Shown: piece by piece, positions 11,000-18,661 of the stretch
Layout: each line of letters starts with the position of its first letter
Position numbering within the stretch: position 1 is the first letter of the stretch
From: an uncultured Mycoplasmatota bacterium
Lineage (GTDB): Bacteria; Bacillota_I; Bacilli_A; RF39; UBA660
NCBI GenBank assembly: GCA_946498375.1
Contig: CAMMOI010000001.1
Location: forward strand, 8,433-72,432
Reading direction: 5' to 3'
DNA: 64,000 bases
Made by a program: the position numbers and the translations under genes
Notes under the pieces: generated by a model
What the model saw: the letters and a program-made list of their open reading frames with translations, nothing else
Told to the model about the DNA's origin: nothing
Database searches by the model: none

Positions 11000-13120
11000 T
11001 TAATCTTTAATTATTAAGTTATTATTTTCTACATCAATTTTAATAGTTGAATTAAATTTTATTTTATCTAAAATAATATTTTTAGCAATTAAGGTTTCTA
11101 GATTACGTGAAACAAATCTTTTAATTGGTCGAGCGCCATATTTTTCATCGTAAGATGAATCAATAATAAAGTCTTTTGCCTTATCAGACAATTGTATTTT
11201 TAAGCGTTTATCTTTTAATCTGTTTTCAATATCACTAATAATTTTATCTAAAATATTATAAACAATATCTTTAGATAAAGAATTAAATATAATTATTTCA
11301 TCAATACGATTAATAAATTCTGGTTTAAAAGTATGTTGTAATTCTTCCATTACAAGTTTATTGGCATTTTCAGTATTTTCTAGAATATATTCGCTTCCTA
11401 AATTAGAAGTCATAATAATTATTGTGTTTTTAAAATCGACGGTGCGACCTTGAGAGTCAGTAATTCTACCATCATCCAATATTTGAAGCAATATATTAAA
11501 AACATCTTTATGAGCTTTTTCAATTTCATCAAAAAGAACTATTGAATAAGGATTTCGACGAATTGCCTCAGTAAGTTGACCTCCTTCATCATATCCTACA
11601 TATCCTGGAGGAGCACCAACTAATCTTGAAACACTGTGAGCTTCCATATATTCAGACATATCTATTCTAACCATATGACGTTCATCATCAAATAGTTCAT
11701 AGGCTAAACTACGGGCAACTTCAGTTTTACCAACTCCAGTAGGTCCTAAGAAAATAAATGAACCAATAGGGCGGTTAGGGTCTTTAATTCCACTACGGGC
11801 TCTAATAATAGCCTCGCTAATTAGTTTTAATGCTTGATCCTGACCCATAACCCTTTTTCTTAGATTATTTTCTAAGTTAATTAATTTTTCTTTTTCACCA
11901 CTAACTAGCTTACTAATTGGAATATTTGTCCATTTAGAAATTATTTTAGCTATGGATTCATCATCAACAACATCACTAAGTAATTTTGATTTAGAGTTAA
12001 ATTTTAAAGTTTCTAGTTCTTCTTGCAATTTAGGAATAATTCCGTGACGTAATTTTGCAGCAGCTTCTAGATCATAATTATTTTCAGCTATTTCTAATTT
12101 ATGCATAGCATTTTCTAATTCTTCTTTTTTGCGATTTATATTGTTACTAACTTCTTTTTCTTGATTCCATTGATCTCTAAGTTCTTTTTCTTTTTCTTGC
12201 AATTGAGAAATTTTAGTATCTAATTCTTTAACTCTTTCCTTAGAAATTTCATCCTTTTCACGTTTTAAAGCTTCACGTTCAATTTGTAGGCGCATAATTT
12301 GTTTGGTTAAGATATCCAAATTAACAGGAACGGATTCCATTTGTACTTTAATAGTAGCACACGCCTCATCAACTAAATCAATAGCCTTATCTGGTAAATA
12401 TCTATTTGTAATATATCTATCAGAAAGAGTAGCAGCAGCAACTAAAGCTTTATCTTTAATAGTTACACCATGATATACCTCAAAACGTGATTTCAAACCA
12501 CGTAAAATGGTAATAGTATCCTCAACATTAGGTTCCTGTACCAAGATTTTTTGAAATCTTCGCTCTAATGCACCGTCTTTTTCTATGTATTTACGATATT
12601 CATTTAAAGTAGTAGCACCTATACAATGAATTTCTCCACGGGCAAGCATAGGCTTTAACATATTTCCAGCATCCATTGCTCCTTCTAAAGCTCCAGCACC
12701 AACTATCATGTGTATTTCATCAATAAACATAATAATTTGGCCATCAGAGTTTTTAACCTCTTTTAATACCGCTTTTAATCTTTCTTCAAATTCGCCTCGA
12801 TATTTTGCACCAGCAATTAATGATCCCATATCTAATTCCCAAATCTTTTTATCTTTTAAACTATTTGGGACATCACCTTTGATAATTCTTTGGGCTAGGC
12901 CTTCAACAATAGCTGTTTTACCAACTCCTGGATCACCAATTAAAACTGGATTATTCTTAGTTTTACGGGATAAAATTCTTGTAATGTTTCTTATTTCTTC
13001 ATCACGACCAATAATTGGATCATTTTTCCCATCTATAACACTTTGAGTAATATCTCTACCATATTTCTCTAAGACATTTTCTAAATTTTCTTGATATTCT
13101 TTTGGGTTATTCATTATCAT
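11000..13120 (-). CDS. clpB: ATP-dependent chaperone ClpB lacking the N-terminal domain
   Basis: Two AAA+ modules ([33 protein letters not shown]), sensor motifs, and a ClpB-length coiled-coil M-domain of about 120 aa between them. The protein begins at the LEKYGRDIT segment that normally follows the about 150 aa N-domain. Confidence 0.85.
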
Positions 13121-13153
13121 TTCTCCTTTTCCAATTATAATTATATCACATTT

Positions 13154-13180
13154 TTAGCACTTGTCAATATAGAGTGCTAA
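13154..13180. promoter_or_regulatory. CIRCE operator (HrcA binding site)
   Basis: TTAGCACTT-GTCAATATA-GAGTGCTAA matches CIRCE consensus TTAGCACTC-N9-GAGTGCTAA at 17 of 18 positions. On the minus strand it overlaps TTGACA-N16-TATAAT directly upstream of clpB. Confidence 0.75.
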
Positions 13181-13197
13181 TTTTATGGTGTTAATAC

Positions 13198-13226
13198 TTG
13201 CGTATATTGCTAAAATATGCTATAAT
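13198..13226 (+). promoter_or_regulatory. sigma-A-type promoter TTGCGT-N17-TGcTATAAT (copy 1)
   Basis: -35 TTGCGT 13198-13203 and extended -10 at 13218-13226. Leader GGCTAGAAAAGAGGGATTAATATG is identical to the copy at 15297-15319. Confidence 0.5.
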
Positions 13227-13249
13227 CTGGCTAGAAAAGAGGGATTAAT

Positions 13250-14926
13250 ATGTTTGATGAGCTTTTTTACAAAAATCAAGACTTACTAAATAAGTTAAAT
13301 TGTAGTAACGAGCAAATTGAAGAGTGGAAATCATATTTAATACAGATGGCTGGTCTTTTAAAAACAGAGGCACAAACACCACCAATTTTAGTAGAGTATA
13401 CTGAACACATGTTTTTAAATTTTAAAAATATTCTAGAAAGAAAAGAATTAAAAGAAAAAATCAGTGATCTAATTTATGAACGAATGAACTGTAAAGATGA
13501 ACAAAAAAAGGCTGAAATAGAACAGCAGTTAAGTGATTTAGATCAAAAATCTAAAGTTGCTGAGCAACAAAAGATAGATATAAGACAGAAAAATACTTTA
13601 ATACTTAATAAATTTAATCAAGAAATAGCTACTTTGCCTAAAGAAAATCAAGTATCTTTTGAGCAAATAAATCAACAACTAGGTGCTCTTATTTCTAATA
13701 TTAATAATGGTATTAATAAAACTAAAGCACCCCAACCTGAGCCAAAAACAGAATTTAGTGCTGAGGAGTTACAAAAACTCTTAGAAGAGCAAAGAAAAGA
13801 AAACGAACGTTTAAAAAAAGAAAATAAAGATTTAAATGATCAGTTAAATGTAATGCAACAAAGTATGGAAGAATTAAAAAACCAATTAGAAGAACAAAGA
13901 AAATTACTTGAAGATATGAAAAATAATACTTTAGGAACTAAAGTAAAAAATGTTGGTAAAAAAGCTAAAAGAAAAGTAGTTCAAGTAAAAAAATGGGCTA
14001 AAGCAAATCCTAAAAAAACAGCAGCTATTATTGGAACAGTAGCCTTAGCTGGTTTAGTTGGATCTGCCGTTGCTTATGGGCATCCTCTAGCTTTTGCTGG
14101 AAGAGTAGTATCTGCAATGTGGAAACCACTTCATAATGTTGGCCTAGGCGAACCACTTCATAATATTAACCGATTCTTGTTTGGTAAAATTCGAGGAGCA
14201 ACCTTTGATAGTGGAAGAGGACTATGGTTATTAAATGGAACACCATTAAATGATTTAGGAGCATTTGAAACCATTCTTAATAATGTAGTAGGAATGGGTG
14301 CTGGATTAGCAGGCGGAGCAGCAATTGGTTATGGAGCATATAAAGTAGCAAAAAAGGCCAAAAATGCCTGGTTAAATAGAGCCGAAGATGGCTTTATTAA
14401 TAAAATGACTAATAAAATTAAATCATTAGGTGGCAATGTAAAAGCATTTGGGGGAAAAATTAAAAGTAAATTAACTAATATTTTTAAGAAAAAGAAAAAA
14501 ACAAAAGATGATTTTGATGTTATGTCTATGGAAGTAGATCAAGAATTAATTGAAGATTGCTTAGGAGATATTAAAGATGCTACTGTTGATGATTTAATTT
14601 ATTTTCAAAATGATATGATATCTATTGGTAGTTATGTTCAAGAAAATCATGCTTTACCTGATGATATAGAGTATCCATTAACTTTAGGAACTATTGTTGA
14701 AATATGTTCATTATTAGATGATGCATTACAGAAAAAATTTGATGAACATATAGAAAATATGTCTAAAGAAGAATTAGAAAATTTAGCACAAGAATTAGAA
14801 GAAAAATTTCAAAACGAAGCAAATAACAATATAAATTACTTTGATTCTAAATATGGTATCAAATTAAGTGCTGCAATCAATAAGGTAAGCGCTAAAATGC
14901 AAGAACAAACAATGGGAGGAAGATAA
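13250..14926 (+). CDS. paralog 1 of duplicated coiled-coil / glycine-zipper protein, unknown function
   Basis: 558 aa. N-terminal about 230 aa heptad-rich coiled coil with a PQPEPK linker. Lys-rich segment (KNVGKKAKRKVVQVKKWAKANPKK), then about 110 aa Gly/Ala-rich hydrophobic core (AIIGTVALAGLVGSAV...VVGMGAGLAGGAAIGYGAY), a second Lys-rich segment, and a conserved C-terminal ENMSKEELENLAQELEEKFQNEANNNI region. Confidence 0.5.
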   Translation: MFDELFYKNQDLLNKLNCSNEQIEEWKSYLIQMAGLLKTEAQTPPILVEYTEHMFLNFKNILERKELKEKISDLIYERMNCKDEQKKAEIEQQLSDLDQKSKVAEQQKIDIRQKNTLILNKFNQEIATLPKENQVSFEQINQQLGALISNINNGINKTKAPQPEPKTEFSAEELQKLLEEQRKENERLKKENKDLNDQLNVMQQSMEELKNQLEEQRKLLEDMKNNTLGTKVKNVGKKAKRKVVQVKKWAKANPKKTAAIIGTVALAGLVGSAVAYGHPLAFAGRVVSAMWKPLHNVGLGEPLHNINRFLFGKIRGATFDSGRGLWLLNGTPLNDLGAFETILNNVVGMGAGLAGGAAIGYGAYKVAKKAKNAWLNRAEDGFINKMTNKIKSLGGNVKAFGGKIKSKLTNIFKKKKKTKDDFDVMSMEVDQELIEDCLGDIKDATVDDLIYFQNDMISIGSYVQENHALPDDIEYPLTLGTIVEICSLLDDALQKKFDEHIENMSKEELENLAQELEEKFQNEANNNINYFDSKYGIKLSAAINKVSAKMQEQTMGGR

Positions 14927-15207
14927 TGACTAAAGGTGATATAATAACTTTAGAAGATAATGAACAATTTCTTTTATTAATGGAAAATGAAATAGAGGGC
15001 AGAAAATTCTTTTATGCAAACAAAGTAGACAATGAGGAAAATACAACTAGCGAATATGAAATTTTTGAACAATTAACTGAAGATGGCGATAATTATTTAG
15101 AAATTGTTGAGGATGAAGATGAAAGAGAATTTTTAACAAATGTATTTAGTGCTGATTTAGTTGAGTTTGCCTCTGATGTGGAAAGTGGAAAGATTACATT
15201 CGAATAA
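14926..15207 (+). CDS. DUF1292-family small acidic protein
   Basis: 93 aa. ITLEDNEQFLLLMENEIEGRKFFYANKV...YLEIVEDEDEREFLTNVF fits the DUF1292/YrzB pattern. ATG overlaps the upstream stop (TAATG), suggesting translational coupling. Confidence 0.6.
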   Translation: MTKGDIITLEDNEQFLLLMENEIEGRKFFYANKVDNEENTTSEYEIFEQLTEDGDNYLEIVEDEDEREFLTNVFSADLVEFASDVESGKITFE

Positions 15208-15217
15208 TGAAAATAAG

Positions 15218-15243
15218 CTAATACTCTTAAGTATTAGTTTTTT
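15218..15243 (+). terminator. intrinsic terminator after operon copy 1
   Basis: CTAATACT-CTTAA-GTATTAG hairpin followed by T6. Confidence 0.6.
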
Positions 15244-15267
15244 AGTATAATAGTTTTAGGCTTATAT

Positions 15268-15296
15268 TTGCTAATATATAGGATTAATGCTATAAT
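15268..15296 (+). promoter_or_regulatory. sigma-A-type promoter TTGCTA-N17-TGcTATAAT (copy 2)
   Basis: Duplicate of the 13198-13226 promoter with an identical downstream leader and SD. Confidence 0.5.
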
Positions 15297-15319
15297 TTGG
15301 CTAGAAAAGAGGGATTAAT

Positions 15320-16984
15320 GTGATTGATGAGCTTTTTGACAAATATCAAGATTTGCTAAACAGATTAAATTGTAGTAACGAGCAAATTAAAGACTGGAAA
15401 CAAATTTTAACAAAAATGTCTGACTTTTTAAAATCTGAATCAGAAAAAGTAAGTGCTGTTGTAATAGAATATGCTGAGCAAATTTTTTTGAGTTTTGAAA
15501 ATATTTTAGAAAAAGAAAAGTTAAAAGAAAAAAAGAATATTTTAATTAATGAACGCGATAATTGTAAAGATGAAGAAAAAAAGTCTGAAATAGAAAAGCA
15601 ATTAAGTGATTTGGAACAAAAATTTAAAATCATTGAGCAACAAAGAGTAGAACTACGTCAAAAAAATAATATAGTATTTAATAAATTTAATCAACAAATT
15701 AATACTTTATCTGAAAAAGATCAAAATGCTTTTGATAAAGTAAACCAACAGTTAGGTAAATTAATTACTAATGTTAATGCTGGTATTGATAAGCCAAAAA
15801 CACCACAGCCTGAGCCCAAAGTAGAGCTTAGTGCTGAGGAGTTACAAAAACTCTTAGAACAGCAAAGACAAGAAAATGAACGTTTGAAAAAGGAAAATCA
15901 AAATTTAAAAAATCAGTTAAATATAATGCAACAAAGTATAGAAGAATTAAAAAAGCAATTAGAAGATCAGAAAAAATTTCTTGAAGAAATGAAAAATAAT
16001 ACTTTAGGAACTAAAGTAAAAAATGTTGGTAAAAAAGCGAAAAGAAAAGTAGTTCAAGTAAAAAAATGGGCCAAAGCAAATCCTAAAAAAACAGTAGCTA
16101 TTATTGGAACAGTAGCCTTAGCTGGTTTAGTTGGATCTGCCGTTATTTACGGACATCCTCTATCTTTTGCTGGAAGAGTAGTTTCGGCTTTGTGGAAACC
16201 ACTTCATAATGTAGGCCTAGGAAAACCACTTCATAATATTAACCGATTCTTATTTGGTAAAATTAGAGGAGCAACCTTTGATAGTGGAAGAGGACTATGG
16301 TTATTAAATGGAACACCATTAAATGATTTAGGAGCATTTGAAACCATTCTTAATAATGTAGTAGGAATGGGTGCTGGATTAGCAGGTCTTTCTGCGGTTG
16401 GTTATGGAGCATATAAAGTAGCAAAAAAGGCTAAAAATGCTTGGTTAAATAGAGCTGAAGATGGCTTTATTAATAAAATGACTAATAAAATCAAATCATT
16501 AAGGGGAACTTTAAAAAATAAGCTTACAAATAGATTTAAAAGAAAAAAAGATTTAATTGAAGATTATGATATTATGAGTCCGGTTGTAGATGCAACTTTA
16601 ATTGATGAAATTTTGCCCGATTTAGAAACTATAAGTATAGAAGAATTGATATATTTACAAAAATATATAAGTGAAGTTAATATATATATTTATAATAATC
16701 ACAAATTACCTGAGGATATTAATGTTCCATTAAATTTAGGGACTATAGAAGAAATTTTAAAAATAATAGACAAGGAGTTACAAATTAGATTTGATGAGTA
16801 TATAGAAAATATGTCTAAAGAAGAATTAGAAAATTTAGCAAAAGAATTAGAAGAAAAATTCCAAAATGAAGCAAATAATAATATTGATTATTTTGATCCT
16901 AAATATGGTATAAAATTAAGTGTAGCAATTAACAAAGTTAGTGCTAAGATTCAAGAGCATATAATTGTGACAAAAAAGATTTAA
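15320..16984 (+). CDS. paralog 2 of duplicated coiled-coil / glycine-zipper protein (GTG start)
   Basis: 554 aa, collinear with 13250..14926. The Gly-zipper core and C-terminal 60 aa are near-identical even at nucleotide level; the coiled-coil and the region before the C-terminus are diverged. Starts at GTG in the position of the copy-1 ATG. Confidence 0.5.
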   Translation: MIDELFDKYQDLLNRLNCSNEQIKDWKQILTKMSDFLKSESEKVSAVVIEYAEQIFLSFENILEKEKLKEKKNILINERDNCKDEEKKSEIEKQLSDLEQKFKIIEQQRVELRQKNNIVFNKFNQQINTLSEKDQNAFDKVNQQLGKLITNVNAGIDKPKTPQPEPKVELSAEELQKLLEQQRQENERLKKENQNLKNQLNIMQQSIEELKKQLEDQKKFLEEMKNNTLGTKVKNVGKKAKRKVVQVKKWAKANPKKTVAIIGTVALAGLVGSAVIYGHPLSFAGRVVSALWKPLHNVGLGKPLHNINRFLFGKIRGATFDSGRGLWLLNGTPLNDLGAFETILNNVVGMGAGLAGLSAVGYGAYKVAKKAKNAWLNRAEDGFINKMTNKIKSLRGTLKNKLTNRFKRKKDLIEDYDIMSPVVDATLIDEILPDLETISIEELIYLQKYISEVNIYIYNNHKLPEDINVPLNLGTIEEILKIIDKELQIRFDEYIENMSKEELENLAKELEEKFQNEANNNIDYFDPKYGIKLSVAINKVSAKIQEHIIVTKKI

Positions 16985-16995
16985 TATTTTTATAA

Positions 16996-17022
16996 GATAA
17001 CGATAAAATCGTTATTTTTTTT
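16996..17022 (+). terminator. intrinsic terminator after paralog 2
   Basis: GATAACGAT-AAAA-TCGTTAT hairpin followed by T8. Confidence 0.6.
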
Positions 17023-17152
17023 AATAATTTTTATAGAATTAAAACTTATAAAATATATTATTTACAGCTAGAAATTATTTCAAAATTAAATTTTATTAAT
17101 TGTACAAATTAAATTATATTTTGATATATATAGTTAGGGTGTTAAAGTAAAA

Positions 17153-18661
17153 ATGAAAGAACCAATAGTTATTAATAAACACAAACTAGATCATGATCAA
17201 ATGGCTATAGTTACTTCAACTTCGAAAAAAATATTAGTCATTGCTGGAGCCGGAAGTGGTAAAAGTTTAACTATGATTGGTAAAATCCACTATTTAATAA
17301 AAGAGTTAAATGTTTCTTCAAATGATATTTTAGCTATTTCTTTTACTAATGAAGCCACTAAAAGTTTAAAAACTAAGCTTCAAAAATATTTTAATTATAA
17401 TATTGATGTTTTAACTTTTCATAAACTAGCTTTAAGAATAATTCATAAACAATACCATAAAATAGTAGATGATAAATTTTTAGATGAAGTTATAGATATT
17501 TTTTTTGAAGGGCTAATTTTTAGTAATCCATATTTATTAAAACAAGTATTAAAATACTTTAGAATTATTTATATGCCATGGAATTATGAAATTAAATATA
17601 AACAATTACTTTTAACTAAAAAAATAACAGTAATGAAAAAAACTATTAGTGTCTTTTTAAAATTATTCAAAACTAATAATTATTCTAATGATGAATTTAT
17701 CCATTTTTTAAAAGCTGGTAAATATTATTCTTTTTTAATTATTGCATATAGTATATATACCTTTTATAAAGCTGAATTAAAAGCTACTAATAGTTTGGAT
17801 TTTGATGAAATAATAAAAAAAGCAATTGGTAATGTAAAAAGATCAAATATTAGTTATAAATATATTATAATTGATGAATATCAAGATACTTCTTTATTAA
17901 GATATGAACTTATAAAAAAAATATTAGATAAGACTAATGCTAATTTAATATGTGTAGGAGATGATTTTCAATCAATCTATAATTTTAGTGGGTGTACTTT
18001 AGATTTATTTTTAAATTTTAAAACTTATTTTCCTAATGCTTCTATAAAATATATTAACTTTACATATCGAAATGCACAGCAATTAATTGATGTTGCTGGA
18101 AGTTTTATTATGAAAAACAAATATCAGATAAGAAAAAATTTAGTTTCAACTAAAAATATTAATAAACCATTTATATTATTTTATTATAAAAATAAAAAAA
18201 GAGATTTTACTACTTTATTATTGAATTTAGGAAAAAAAGATAAATTATTTGTATTAGGAAGAAATAACTTTGATATAAAGAAATATTTAGATTTAAACAT
18301 CTTTAAATTAGAAAAAGATGGGTATATATATTTACTAAAGAATAACTATTGTTATGCTAGATATTTAACAATTCATAAAGCCAAGGGCTTGGAAAGTGAT
18401 AATGTTATAATTATTAATTTAGAAAACGATTTTTATGGATTTCCTAGTAAGCAAATTGATGAAAAAGTACTATCGCTAGTAAAAAAGCCAACTGATGCTT
18501 CAATTAAATATGCTGAGGAGCGTCGCTTATTTTATGTTGCAATTACAAGAAGTAAAAATAAGGTTTATTTATATCTTAGTTCTAATGAATCAATATTTAT
18601 AAAAGAATTAAAAAAAGATTATAAAAAATATTTAGTAATATATAAAAAGAAAACTTATTAG
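17153..18661 (+). CDS. compact UvrD/PcrA-like superfamily-1 DNA helicase
   Basis: Walker A AGAGSGKS, motif II IIIDEYQDTS, motif III GDDFQSIY, motif V TIHKAKGLE and motif VI FYVAITRSK all present in only 502 aa. Confidence 0.65.
   Translation: MKEPIVINKHKLDHDQMAIVTSTSKKILVIAGAGSGKSLTMIGKIHYLIKELNVSSNDILAISFTNEATKSLKTKLQKYFNYNIDVLTFHKLALRIIHKQYHKIVDDKFLDEVIDIFFEGLIFSNPYLLKQVLKYFRIIYMPWNYEIKYKQLLLTKKITVMKKTISVFLKLFKTNNYSNDEFIHFLKAGKYYSFLIIAYSIYTFYKAELKATNSLDFDEIIKKAIGNVKRSNISYKYIIIDEYQDTSLLRYELIKKILDKTNANLICVGDDFQSIYNFSGCTLDLFLNFKTYFPNASIKYINFTYRNAQQLIDVAGSFIMKNKYQIRKNLVSTKNINKPFILFYYKNKKRDFTTLLLNLGKKDKLFVLGRNNFDIKKYLDLNIFKLEKDGYIYLLKNNYCYARYLTIHKAKGLESDNVIIINLENDFYGFPSKQIDEKVLSLVKKPTDASIKYAEERRLFYVAITRSKNKVYLYLSSNESIFIKELKKDYKKYLVIYKKKTY

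Follow-up and report, generated by a model that had tools for sequence, protein, structure and literature searches.

Segmental gene conversion and concerted evolution of duplicated genes are known in bacteria, as in tufA/tufB of Salmonella; further cases are reportedly reviewed by Santoyo and Romero in FEMS Microbiol Rev (2005). In Helicobacter pylori, the paralog pairs babA/babB and sabA/sabB exchange sequences through conserved segments, and this exchange yields chimeras. Here we describe two tandem paralogs, genes A and B, in a 64,000-nucleotide stretch of DNA from an uncultured Mycoplasmatota bacterium (the window; G+C ~25%). Gene A (13250..14926, + strand) was read as an open reading frame (ORF) of 558 amino acids with an ATG start, and gene B (15320..16984, + strand) as one of 554 amino acids with a GTG start; between them lies g93 (14926..15207, + strand), a small acidic partner ORF of gene A encoding 93 amino acids. 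We compared the two genes with each other and with O, the single-copy ortholog of a sister species, which is 83% identical to A. The comparison makes it likely that the core of these old tandem paralogs has undergone segmental gene conversion and that their similar C-terminal block has been held by selection.

Based on a codon alignment of 13250-14926 against 15320-16984, A and B are 81% identical in DNA and 71% identical in protein, and this identity is distributed along the genes as a mosaic. The N-terminal block (columns 1-165) shows 58% identity in protein and 76% in DNA, and the adjoining block (columns 166-227) shows 76% and 88%. In the core (columns 228-395, from LGTKVKN to KSL; A 13928-14431, B 16001-16504), the values rise to 95% in protein and 93.8% in DNA, with perfect runs of 50, 32, 49, 28, 121, 34 and 35 nt. 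The variable block that follows (columns 396-496; A 14432-14734, B 16505-16786, + strand) holds a 7-codon indel between A and B, and identity there falls to 45% in protein and 62% in DNA. It is succeeded by a conserved C-terminal block (columns 497-551; A 14735-14899, B 16787-16951, + strand) that is 87% identical at both levels. The longest run, of 121 nt (A 14193..14313 = B 16266..16386, + strand), has a probability of p=0.005 given the core's own 6% divergence (mismatch positions permuted within the core) and of p<5e-5 when mismatches are permuted gene-wide.

These measurements agree with the original prediction for this locus, made from the letters alone, in which the coiled-coil N-terminus was put at about 60% protein identity, the core was described as near-identical in DNA with long perfect runs, and the segment between the core and the C-terminus was described as strongly diverged. 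The last ~60 codons had also been called near-identical, which is true of the protein only: 14 of the 27 synonymous sites in the C-terminal block differ between A and B. Overlooked at that time were the final 7-10 codons, which are unrelated in the two genes (...QTMGGR in A, ...IIVTKKI in B). The A/B homology stops ~19 nt before the stop of gene B, and the divergent tail of B, including the stop codon, occupies 16952..16984 (+ strand; counterpart in A, 14900-14926).

We estimated synonymous (dS) and nonsynonymous (dN) divergence for each block by the Nei-Gojobori method and used O (contigs L001, L002 and L005, then L006 and L017) as the outgroup. Between A and B, the core showed a dS of 0.18 and a dN of 0.03 (dN/dS 0.17), the C-terminal block a dS of 0.89 and a dN of 0.05 (dN/dS 0.06), and the variable block a dS of 0.88 and a dN of 0.47 (dN/dS 0.53); estimates of A-B dS of 0.12-0.15 in the core versus 0.57-0.89 elsewhere were also obtained. 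Counted directly, 20 of 120 silent sites differ between A and B in the core (0.17) versus 82 of 192 elsewhere (0.43), a 2.6-fold drop (p=1.2e-6), and silent divergence between the paralogs is thus heterogeneous along the alignment. Between A and O, it is even, with 37 of 119 sites differing in the core (0.31) and 57 of 197 elsewhere (0.29; p=0.70). Silent sites of the core thus do not evolve slowly of themselves.

The grouping of the three sequences at silent sites also changes along the gene. In a three-taxon test on the blocks as originally delimited, informative silent sites of the core joined A with B in 26 cases and A with O in 5, whereas those of the variable block joined A with B once and A with O 17 times (Fisher p=6e-8, core versus variable block). 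A second outgroup sequence repeated this core-versus-variable result. An unsupervised maximum chi-square scan of silent sites delimited the A+B segment to codons 178-386, with none of 300 permutations attaining the observed value; sites supporting A+B and A+O stood at 31:5 within this segment and at 11:34 outside. The putative conversion zone so defined (columns 178-386; 13778..14404 in A and 15851..16477 in B, + strand) covers the last part of the coiled coil, a polybasic stretch, the first hydrophobic helix (TM1), a loop and the second helix (TM2). These patterns support the view that the two tandem copies recombined and that this homogenised the core. In the variable block, dS is 0.22 between A and O versus 0.88 between A and B; the history of this block is ((A,O),B), and the A/B split therefore appears to be older than the species split.

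The C-terminal block gave a different picture. Its informative silent sites are divided among all groupings (A with B, 3; A with O, 6; B with O, 5), and the proportion of its silent sites that differ between A and B is indistinguishable from that of the variable block (p=1.0) and higher than that of the core (p=3e-4). Because its dS equals that of the variable block and its dN/dS is as low as 0.06, the likeness of the two C-termini indicates purifying selection, as between species. The proposal that gene conversion had acted on both the core and the C-terminus can accordingly be kept for the core and has to be given up for the C-terminus.

A three-way nucleotide alignment of A, B and O resolved the fine structure of the core. 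In columns 306-355 (50 codons, holding the 121-nt run), 14 sites, most of them synonymous, separate O from A, and 2 separate B from A; the 121-nt run is the putative most recent tract. Two short islands of B type appear to have remained unconverted. The first, at codons 275-290 (16145..16190, + strand), differs from A at 9 of its 46 nt, and O has the B base at 2 of its 5 silent differences. The second, at codons 356-360 (16387..16397, + strand), differs from A at 8 of its 11 nt (GGAAI versus GLSAV) and lies right against the 121-nt run. Both islands hold silent as well as replacement differences; the first is about as diverged as the unconverted regions, and the second exceeds them. Because these two islands survive, the core is better read as a patchwork of tracts than as one event. 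The dS from the tracts to O is 0.31-0.46, near the species level and well below the paralog level (~0.9), which favours A as the donor; conversion probably ran from A to B.

The course of events may have been as follows. The duplication that gave rise to A and B would have preceded the split from the sister species. Later, homologous recombination between the direct repeats, presumably of the RecA type and in the form of non-reciprocal gene conversion, would have overwritten some stretches in the middle third of one copy, between the last part of the coiled coil and a point shortly beyond TM2. This would have taken place in several tracts, with the two short B-type islands left unconverted. 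Because core identity is high, further conversion there would be easy, and the flanks (24-38% diverged) would now be too different to recombine. The data show the mosaic itself, the conflicting groupings at silent sites and the even silent divergence between A and O; from there we infer the direction of conversion, the number and age of the tracts, recombination of the RecA type, the membrane topology and any functional consequence.

Several observations weigh against this reading. Silent sites in the N-terminal half are mixed and star-like (12:11:12), and columns 121-165 group B with O, which a single conversion does not explain. Over all sites, A and B are barely closer to each other in the zone (distance 0.072) than A and O are (0.088), because B retains its own replacement differences. 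The outgroup is a single lineage represented by four near-identical O sequences, and O carries the A-g93 module elsewhere, beside serS, so its history may itself include transfer or recombination. The silent sites per block are few (24-120). Furthermore, the sequences are metagenome assemblies, in which bubble-popping by the assembler could have removed a few A/B differences, and copy number is unreadable from a contig.

In the sub-block of columns 121-165 (13610-13741 in A, codons ~121-164; 15683-15814 in B), A is the outlier: the nucleotide distance is 0.37 for A-O, 0.24 for B-O and 0.26 for A-B, and between A and O, dN (0.54) exceeds dS (0.42). This sub-block could reflect an older or additional exchange involving the O lineage, or rapid change in A.

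A grouping of A with B in the core and of A with O in the flanks is equally predicted if B is a recent duplicate of A that arose after the species split, with its core original and its N-terminal part and variable block imported from a divergent allele. The occurrence of the A-g93 module in another genomic context in O indicates that the gene can move. In addition, a second strain (contig L004) has 5 of its 14 single-nucleotide polymorphisms (SNPs) within 56 nt of B, three of them matching neither paralog, which is a hint of a third allele. We consider this history unlikely. It needs separate imports for the N-terminal part, the two core islands and the variable block, and all of them must end before the C-terminal block, which is itself diverged at silent sites. 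Neither the 5.8 billion clustered proteins nor the 1.84 billion representatives searched contained a donor-like sequence, and the variable block of B holds family-ancestral residues (LNLGT, I-x-K) in common with distant homologs, as would an old resident paralog.

A mosaic could also arise without any recombination, from purifying selection that varies between a constrained membrane core and C-terminal block on the one hand and a free coiled coil and linker on the other. Conserved and variable blocks are indeed alike across the whole family, the core protein is nearly invariant even between species, and for the C-terminal block this explanation holds. As an account of the whole mosaic, it is very improbable: synonymous divergence, which selection at the amino-acid level does not reduce, falls in the core between A and B and is unchanged there between A and O, and silent sites of the core and of the variable block support opposite topologies.

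The tandem arrangement has left traces in public assemblies. L003 (1-2128; 2128 nt), L009 (1-2150; 2150 nt) and L010 (1-2125; 2125 nt) come from different metagenomes, and each begins and ends with the same sequence (55, 77 and 52 nt, respectively). Length minus overlap is 2073 nt in every case, exactly the A-to-B offset. L003 has g93 on both flanks and is the source of P0002, a public protein of 559 amino acids in which a B-type N-terminal half and core are followed by an A-type C-terminal part. Because a de Bruijn graph turns a two-copy tandem repeat into such loops when the copies are perfectly identical over k nt or more, L003 and P0002 are most simply explained as an assembly-graph loop; a genuine excised circle or a change in copy number would give contigs of just this form. 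We rejected P0002 as a real recombinant on account of the 55-nt identity of the contig's prefix and suffix, the 2073-nt period and the two further contigs of the same kind.

Contigs of independent samples and assemblers repeat the A and B sequences, and their breaks coincide exactly with the ends of the 121-nt run. One of them, a MEGAHIT k87 contig from another sample, enters the run from both sides, by 86 and 87 nt; the run thus has the same edges in that sample as in the window. The three independent loops and the hybrid protein do tell of assemblers struggling here, but that the identical stretches are themselves an artefact of collapsed or bubble-popped copies, or of a mis-phased contig, is very unlikely. 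Merging in a de Bruijn graph requires true identity over k nt or more, and the k87 contig reaches so far into the run. L004 (an independent sample) runs through g93, the whole of B and the helicase gene in the phasing of the window, and the single-copy ortholog O is collinear with A. A simple collapse of the copies would, moreover, not have left the B-type islands interleaved with the tracts.

The contig of the second strain (L004, with the B protein P0006; ~3x coverage) shows 99.6% identity to the window. Its gene B has lost 36 nt in frame (16718-16753; junction 2458/2459 in L004) and, with them, the family-conserved LNLGT. The five clustered SNPs lie in codons 367-385 (2159-2214 in L004, 16418-16473 in the window), and the two that do match a paralog match A. 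Between B and its counterpart B4, the two strains available, the variable block differs by 0.4%. We looked for variation of this block between strains and for circulating chimeras and found neither, the strains differing by this 0.4% and the three apparent chimeric contigs being loops. Seven in-gene SNPs carry the base of the other paralog (4 in L013, 2 in L004 and 1 in L015). Ongoing micro-conversion was rejected as their explanation, as they are indistinguishable from parallel transitions at unconstrained sites.

A and B are apparently members of a rare, unannotated membrane-hairpin family of uncultured low-GC Bacilli. Among 5.8 billion clusters, 6 proteins were found in total, including A, B, P0006, the ortholog O and P0002. 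A profile search of 1.84 billion representatives returned 14 proteins at E<=0.001, and for 12 the E value was under 1e-10. We aligned eleven homologs from this set, 22-32% identical to A, and they showed one common architecture: an N-terminal helical domain with a coiled coil, a polybasic stretch, the hydrophobic helix TM1, a conserved loop of ~64 amino acids, a Gly/Ala-rich TM2, a second basic stretch and an acidic helical C-terminal domain. The core is the most constrained part of the protein across the whole family, and its most conserved part is the loop (residues P279, R285, L294, L303, H304, G312, G324, W326 and N334). Most homologs have a C-terminal ending of the GG[R/K] type, as do A (MGGR) and O. 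The product of gene B, ending in IIVTKKI, lacks the GG[R/K] motif, and the gene is without an overlapping partner ORF.

Searches against Pfam, NCBIfam, PHROG, PADLOC and PDB sequences gave no match at the curated threshold, only coiled-coil noise; the best sub-threshold families were MakE (17 bits, cutoff 360) and Rod_CreS (16 bits, cutoff 100). AlphaFold models contained confident helical domains at residues 1-155 and 421-555 and a low-confidence core, and no function could be drawn from the predicted fold. With Foldseek, nothing reached E<=0.001, the best values being 1.5 in PDB and 0.03 in BFVD.

The ratio of K+R to D+E is 12:0 before TM1, 18:3 after TM2 and 6:4 in the loop, and a signal peptide was looked for in the A and B proteins and not found. 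Based on the positive-inside rule and the lack of a signal peptide, the proteins are predicted to form an N-in/C-in membrane hairpin whose variable regions are both cytoplasmic and whose conserved loop alone is external. A cytoplasmic position of the variable regions is evidence against a diversifying surface-exposed binding region, and the earlier idea of a target-binding surface is unsupported in the sense of an external surface. What had been called a membrane-active core amounts to just a two-helix membrane hairpin, and no toxin or pore-forming family matched it.

One may speculate that the shared core is an oligomerisation or membrane module and that repeated conversion keeps the cores of A and B interchangeable, so that the two proteins co-assemble with different cytoplasmic ends. 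B would then have shed the GG[R/K] ending and the partner, and the 2073-bp unit might expand, contract or excise via the 121-nt identity. We think this scenario rather unlikely. If it were true, excision or expansion of the unit would lead to copy-number heterogeneity in the population.

We compared the region 11000-18661 of the window with related loci, denoting the family gene, homolog of A, as X. The order clpB (- strand), then X, a small acidic ORF and a UvrD-like helicase gene is kept in four distant relatives (L007, L008, L021 and L022), each with a single copy of X. Since relatives with the conserved synteny are single-copy, B, which lies between g93 and the UvrD-like helicase gene, is the added, lineage-specific copy. 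Gene A is the canonical copy of the family: it is collinear with O and ends in ...MGGR. In every relative examined, a small ORF of 89-98 amino acids lies 3' of the homolog with its start overlapping the stop of X, as the start of g93 overlaps the stop of gene A; in L020, too, X is followed by the small ORF. No further copies of A or B were found within the 64-kb window, and a search for a second g93 remnant 3' of gene B gave weak AT-rich alignments alone. Compared with DUF1292 (PF06949), two members of the g93 group scored 18.5 and 16.2 bits (gathering threshold, 24 bits). This identity was rejected, as the scores are below the threshold and the other two members scored gave no match.

In the sister species, the X-g93 module lies between serS and a gene for a Flg_new-repeat protein (L001 9940-11959, L006 5940-8008, and L017). 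The homology of O to the window is confined to 13189-15244 and has sharp edges. The two genes have changed place as a module, by relocation or by transfer.

X is 22-32% identical to its counterparts in relatives whose ClpB is 80-86% identical; in L008, for instance, ClpB is 86% identical to the window ClpB and X 26%. By this measure, X is an unusually fast-evolving gene in a stable neighbourhood. The pattern of a conserved core and variable flanks is therefore largely a trait of the whole family, to which conversion adds in the core only. The coiled coil was correctly described as diverging between A and B, but part of this divergence belongs to the family as a whole, as the flanks evolve fast in every lineage.

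The left edge of the A/B homology is a 33-nt leader. The leaders of A (13217..13249, + strand; from alignment and sequence reading) and B (15287..15319, + strand; from alignment and promoter scan) match at 32 of 33 nt and contain an extended -10 element (TGCTATAAT) and a ribosome-binding site (RBS; AAAGAGGGA). A promoter scan found a promoter-like site before gene B at 15268-15296 (TTGCTA, 17 nt, TATAAT, with TG). Terminator-like hairpins followed by U-runs lie 3' of g93 (15215..15240, + strand; -9.6 kcal/mol, z = -3.1) and 3' of gene B (16994..17018, + strand; -8.7 kcal/mol, z = -3.1). The placement of these elements suggests two transcription units, A-g93 and B by itself.

Upstream of gene A lies the clpB-like gene on the opposite strand, and downstream of B lies the UvrD-like helicase gene. 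The ClpB-like protein (11000-13120, - strand) has just 706 amino acids, and its counterparts in L021 and L022 have 700. The UvrD-like protein (17153-18661, 502 amino acids) matches the PADLOC models for GajB and for a DRT-associated helicase at E values of 1e-40 to 1e-50. Because the helicase gene is syntenic in all relatives, this match probably reflects generic superfamily 1 (SF1) similarity.

In this one gene pair, conversion and selection leave distinct footprints: the cores are alike at silent sites, and the C-termini are alike in amino acids. Identity alone cannot separate the two processes. The locus also illustrates how a tandem repeat yields loop contigs in metagenome assemblies, from which a hybrid protein has now entered public protein collections. 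With ~14 representatives among 1.84 billion, the family, unannotated and syntenic in uncultured low-GC Bacilli, may deserve a family definition.

The A/B case is an ordinary, well-understood segmental gene conversion between tandem paralogs, and nothing points to a new biological principle. As in conversion of the tufA/tufB type, non-reciprocal recombination within one genome would have homogenised the most similar segment, and silent-site identity and a tree joining paralog with paralog are found in that segment only. Unlike that type, A and B are homogenised only in the central third and patchily, the flanks are too diverged to recombine, and the genes belong to an unannotated family. With babA/babB and sabA/sabB of H. 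pylori, the pair shares a conserved end or core next to a diverged middle region. In those pairs, the diverged region lies on the cell surface and binds ligands of the host, and strains with chimeras are observed; here, the variable regions are predicted to be cytoplasmic, and what seemed to be chimeras have the look of assembly loops. The cassette systems of antigenic variation (Neisseria pilE/pilS, Mycoplasma genitalium mgpB/MgPar and Borrelia vlsE) resemble A/B in gene conversion between repeats with conserved and variable blocks. In contrast to these systems, A and B have no silent donor cassettes, both genes being full-length with their own promoter-like site and RBS; it is the conserved block that would be exchanged, and the variable parts are predicted not to be exposed.

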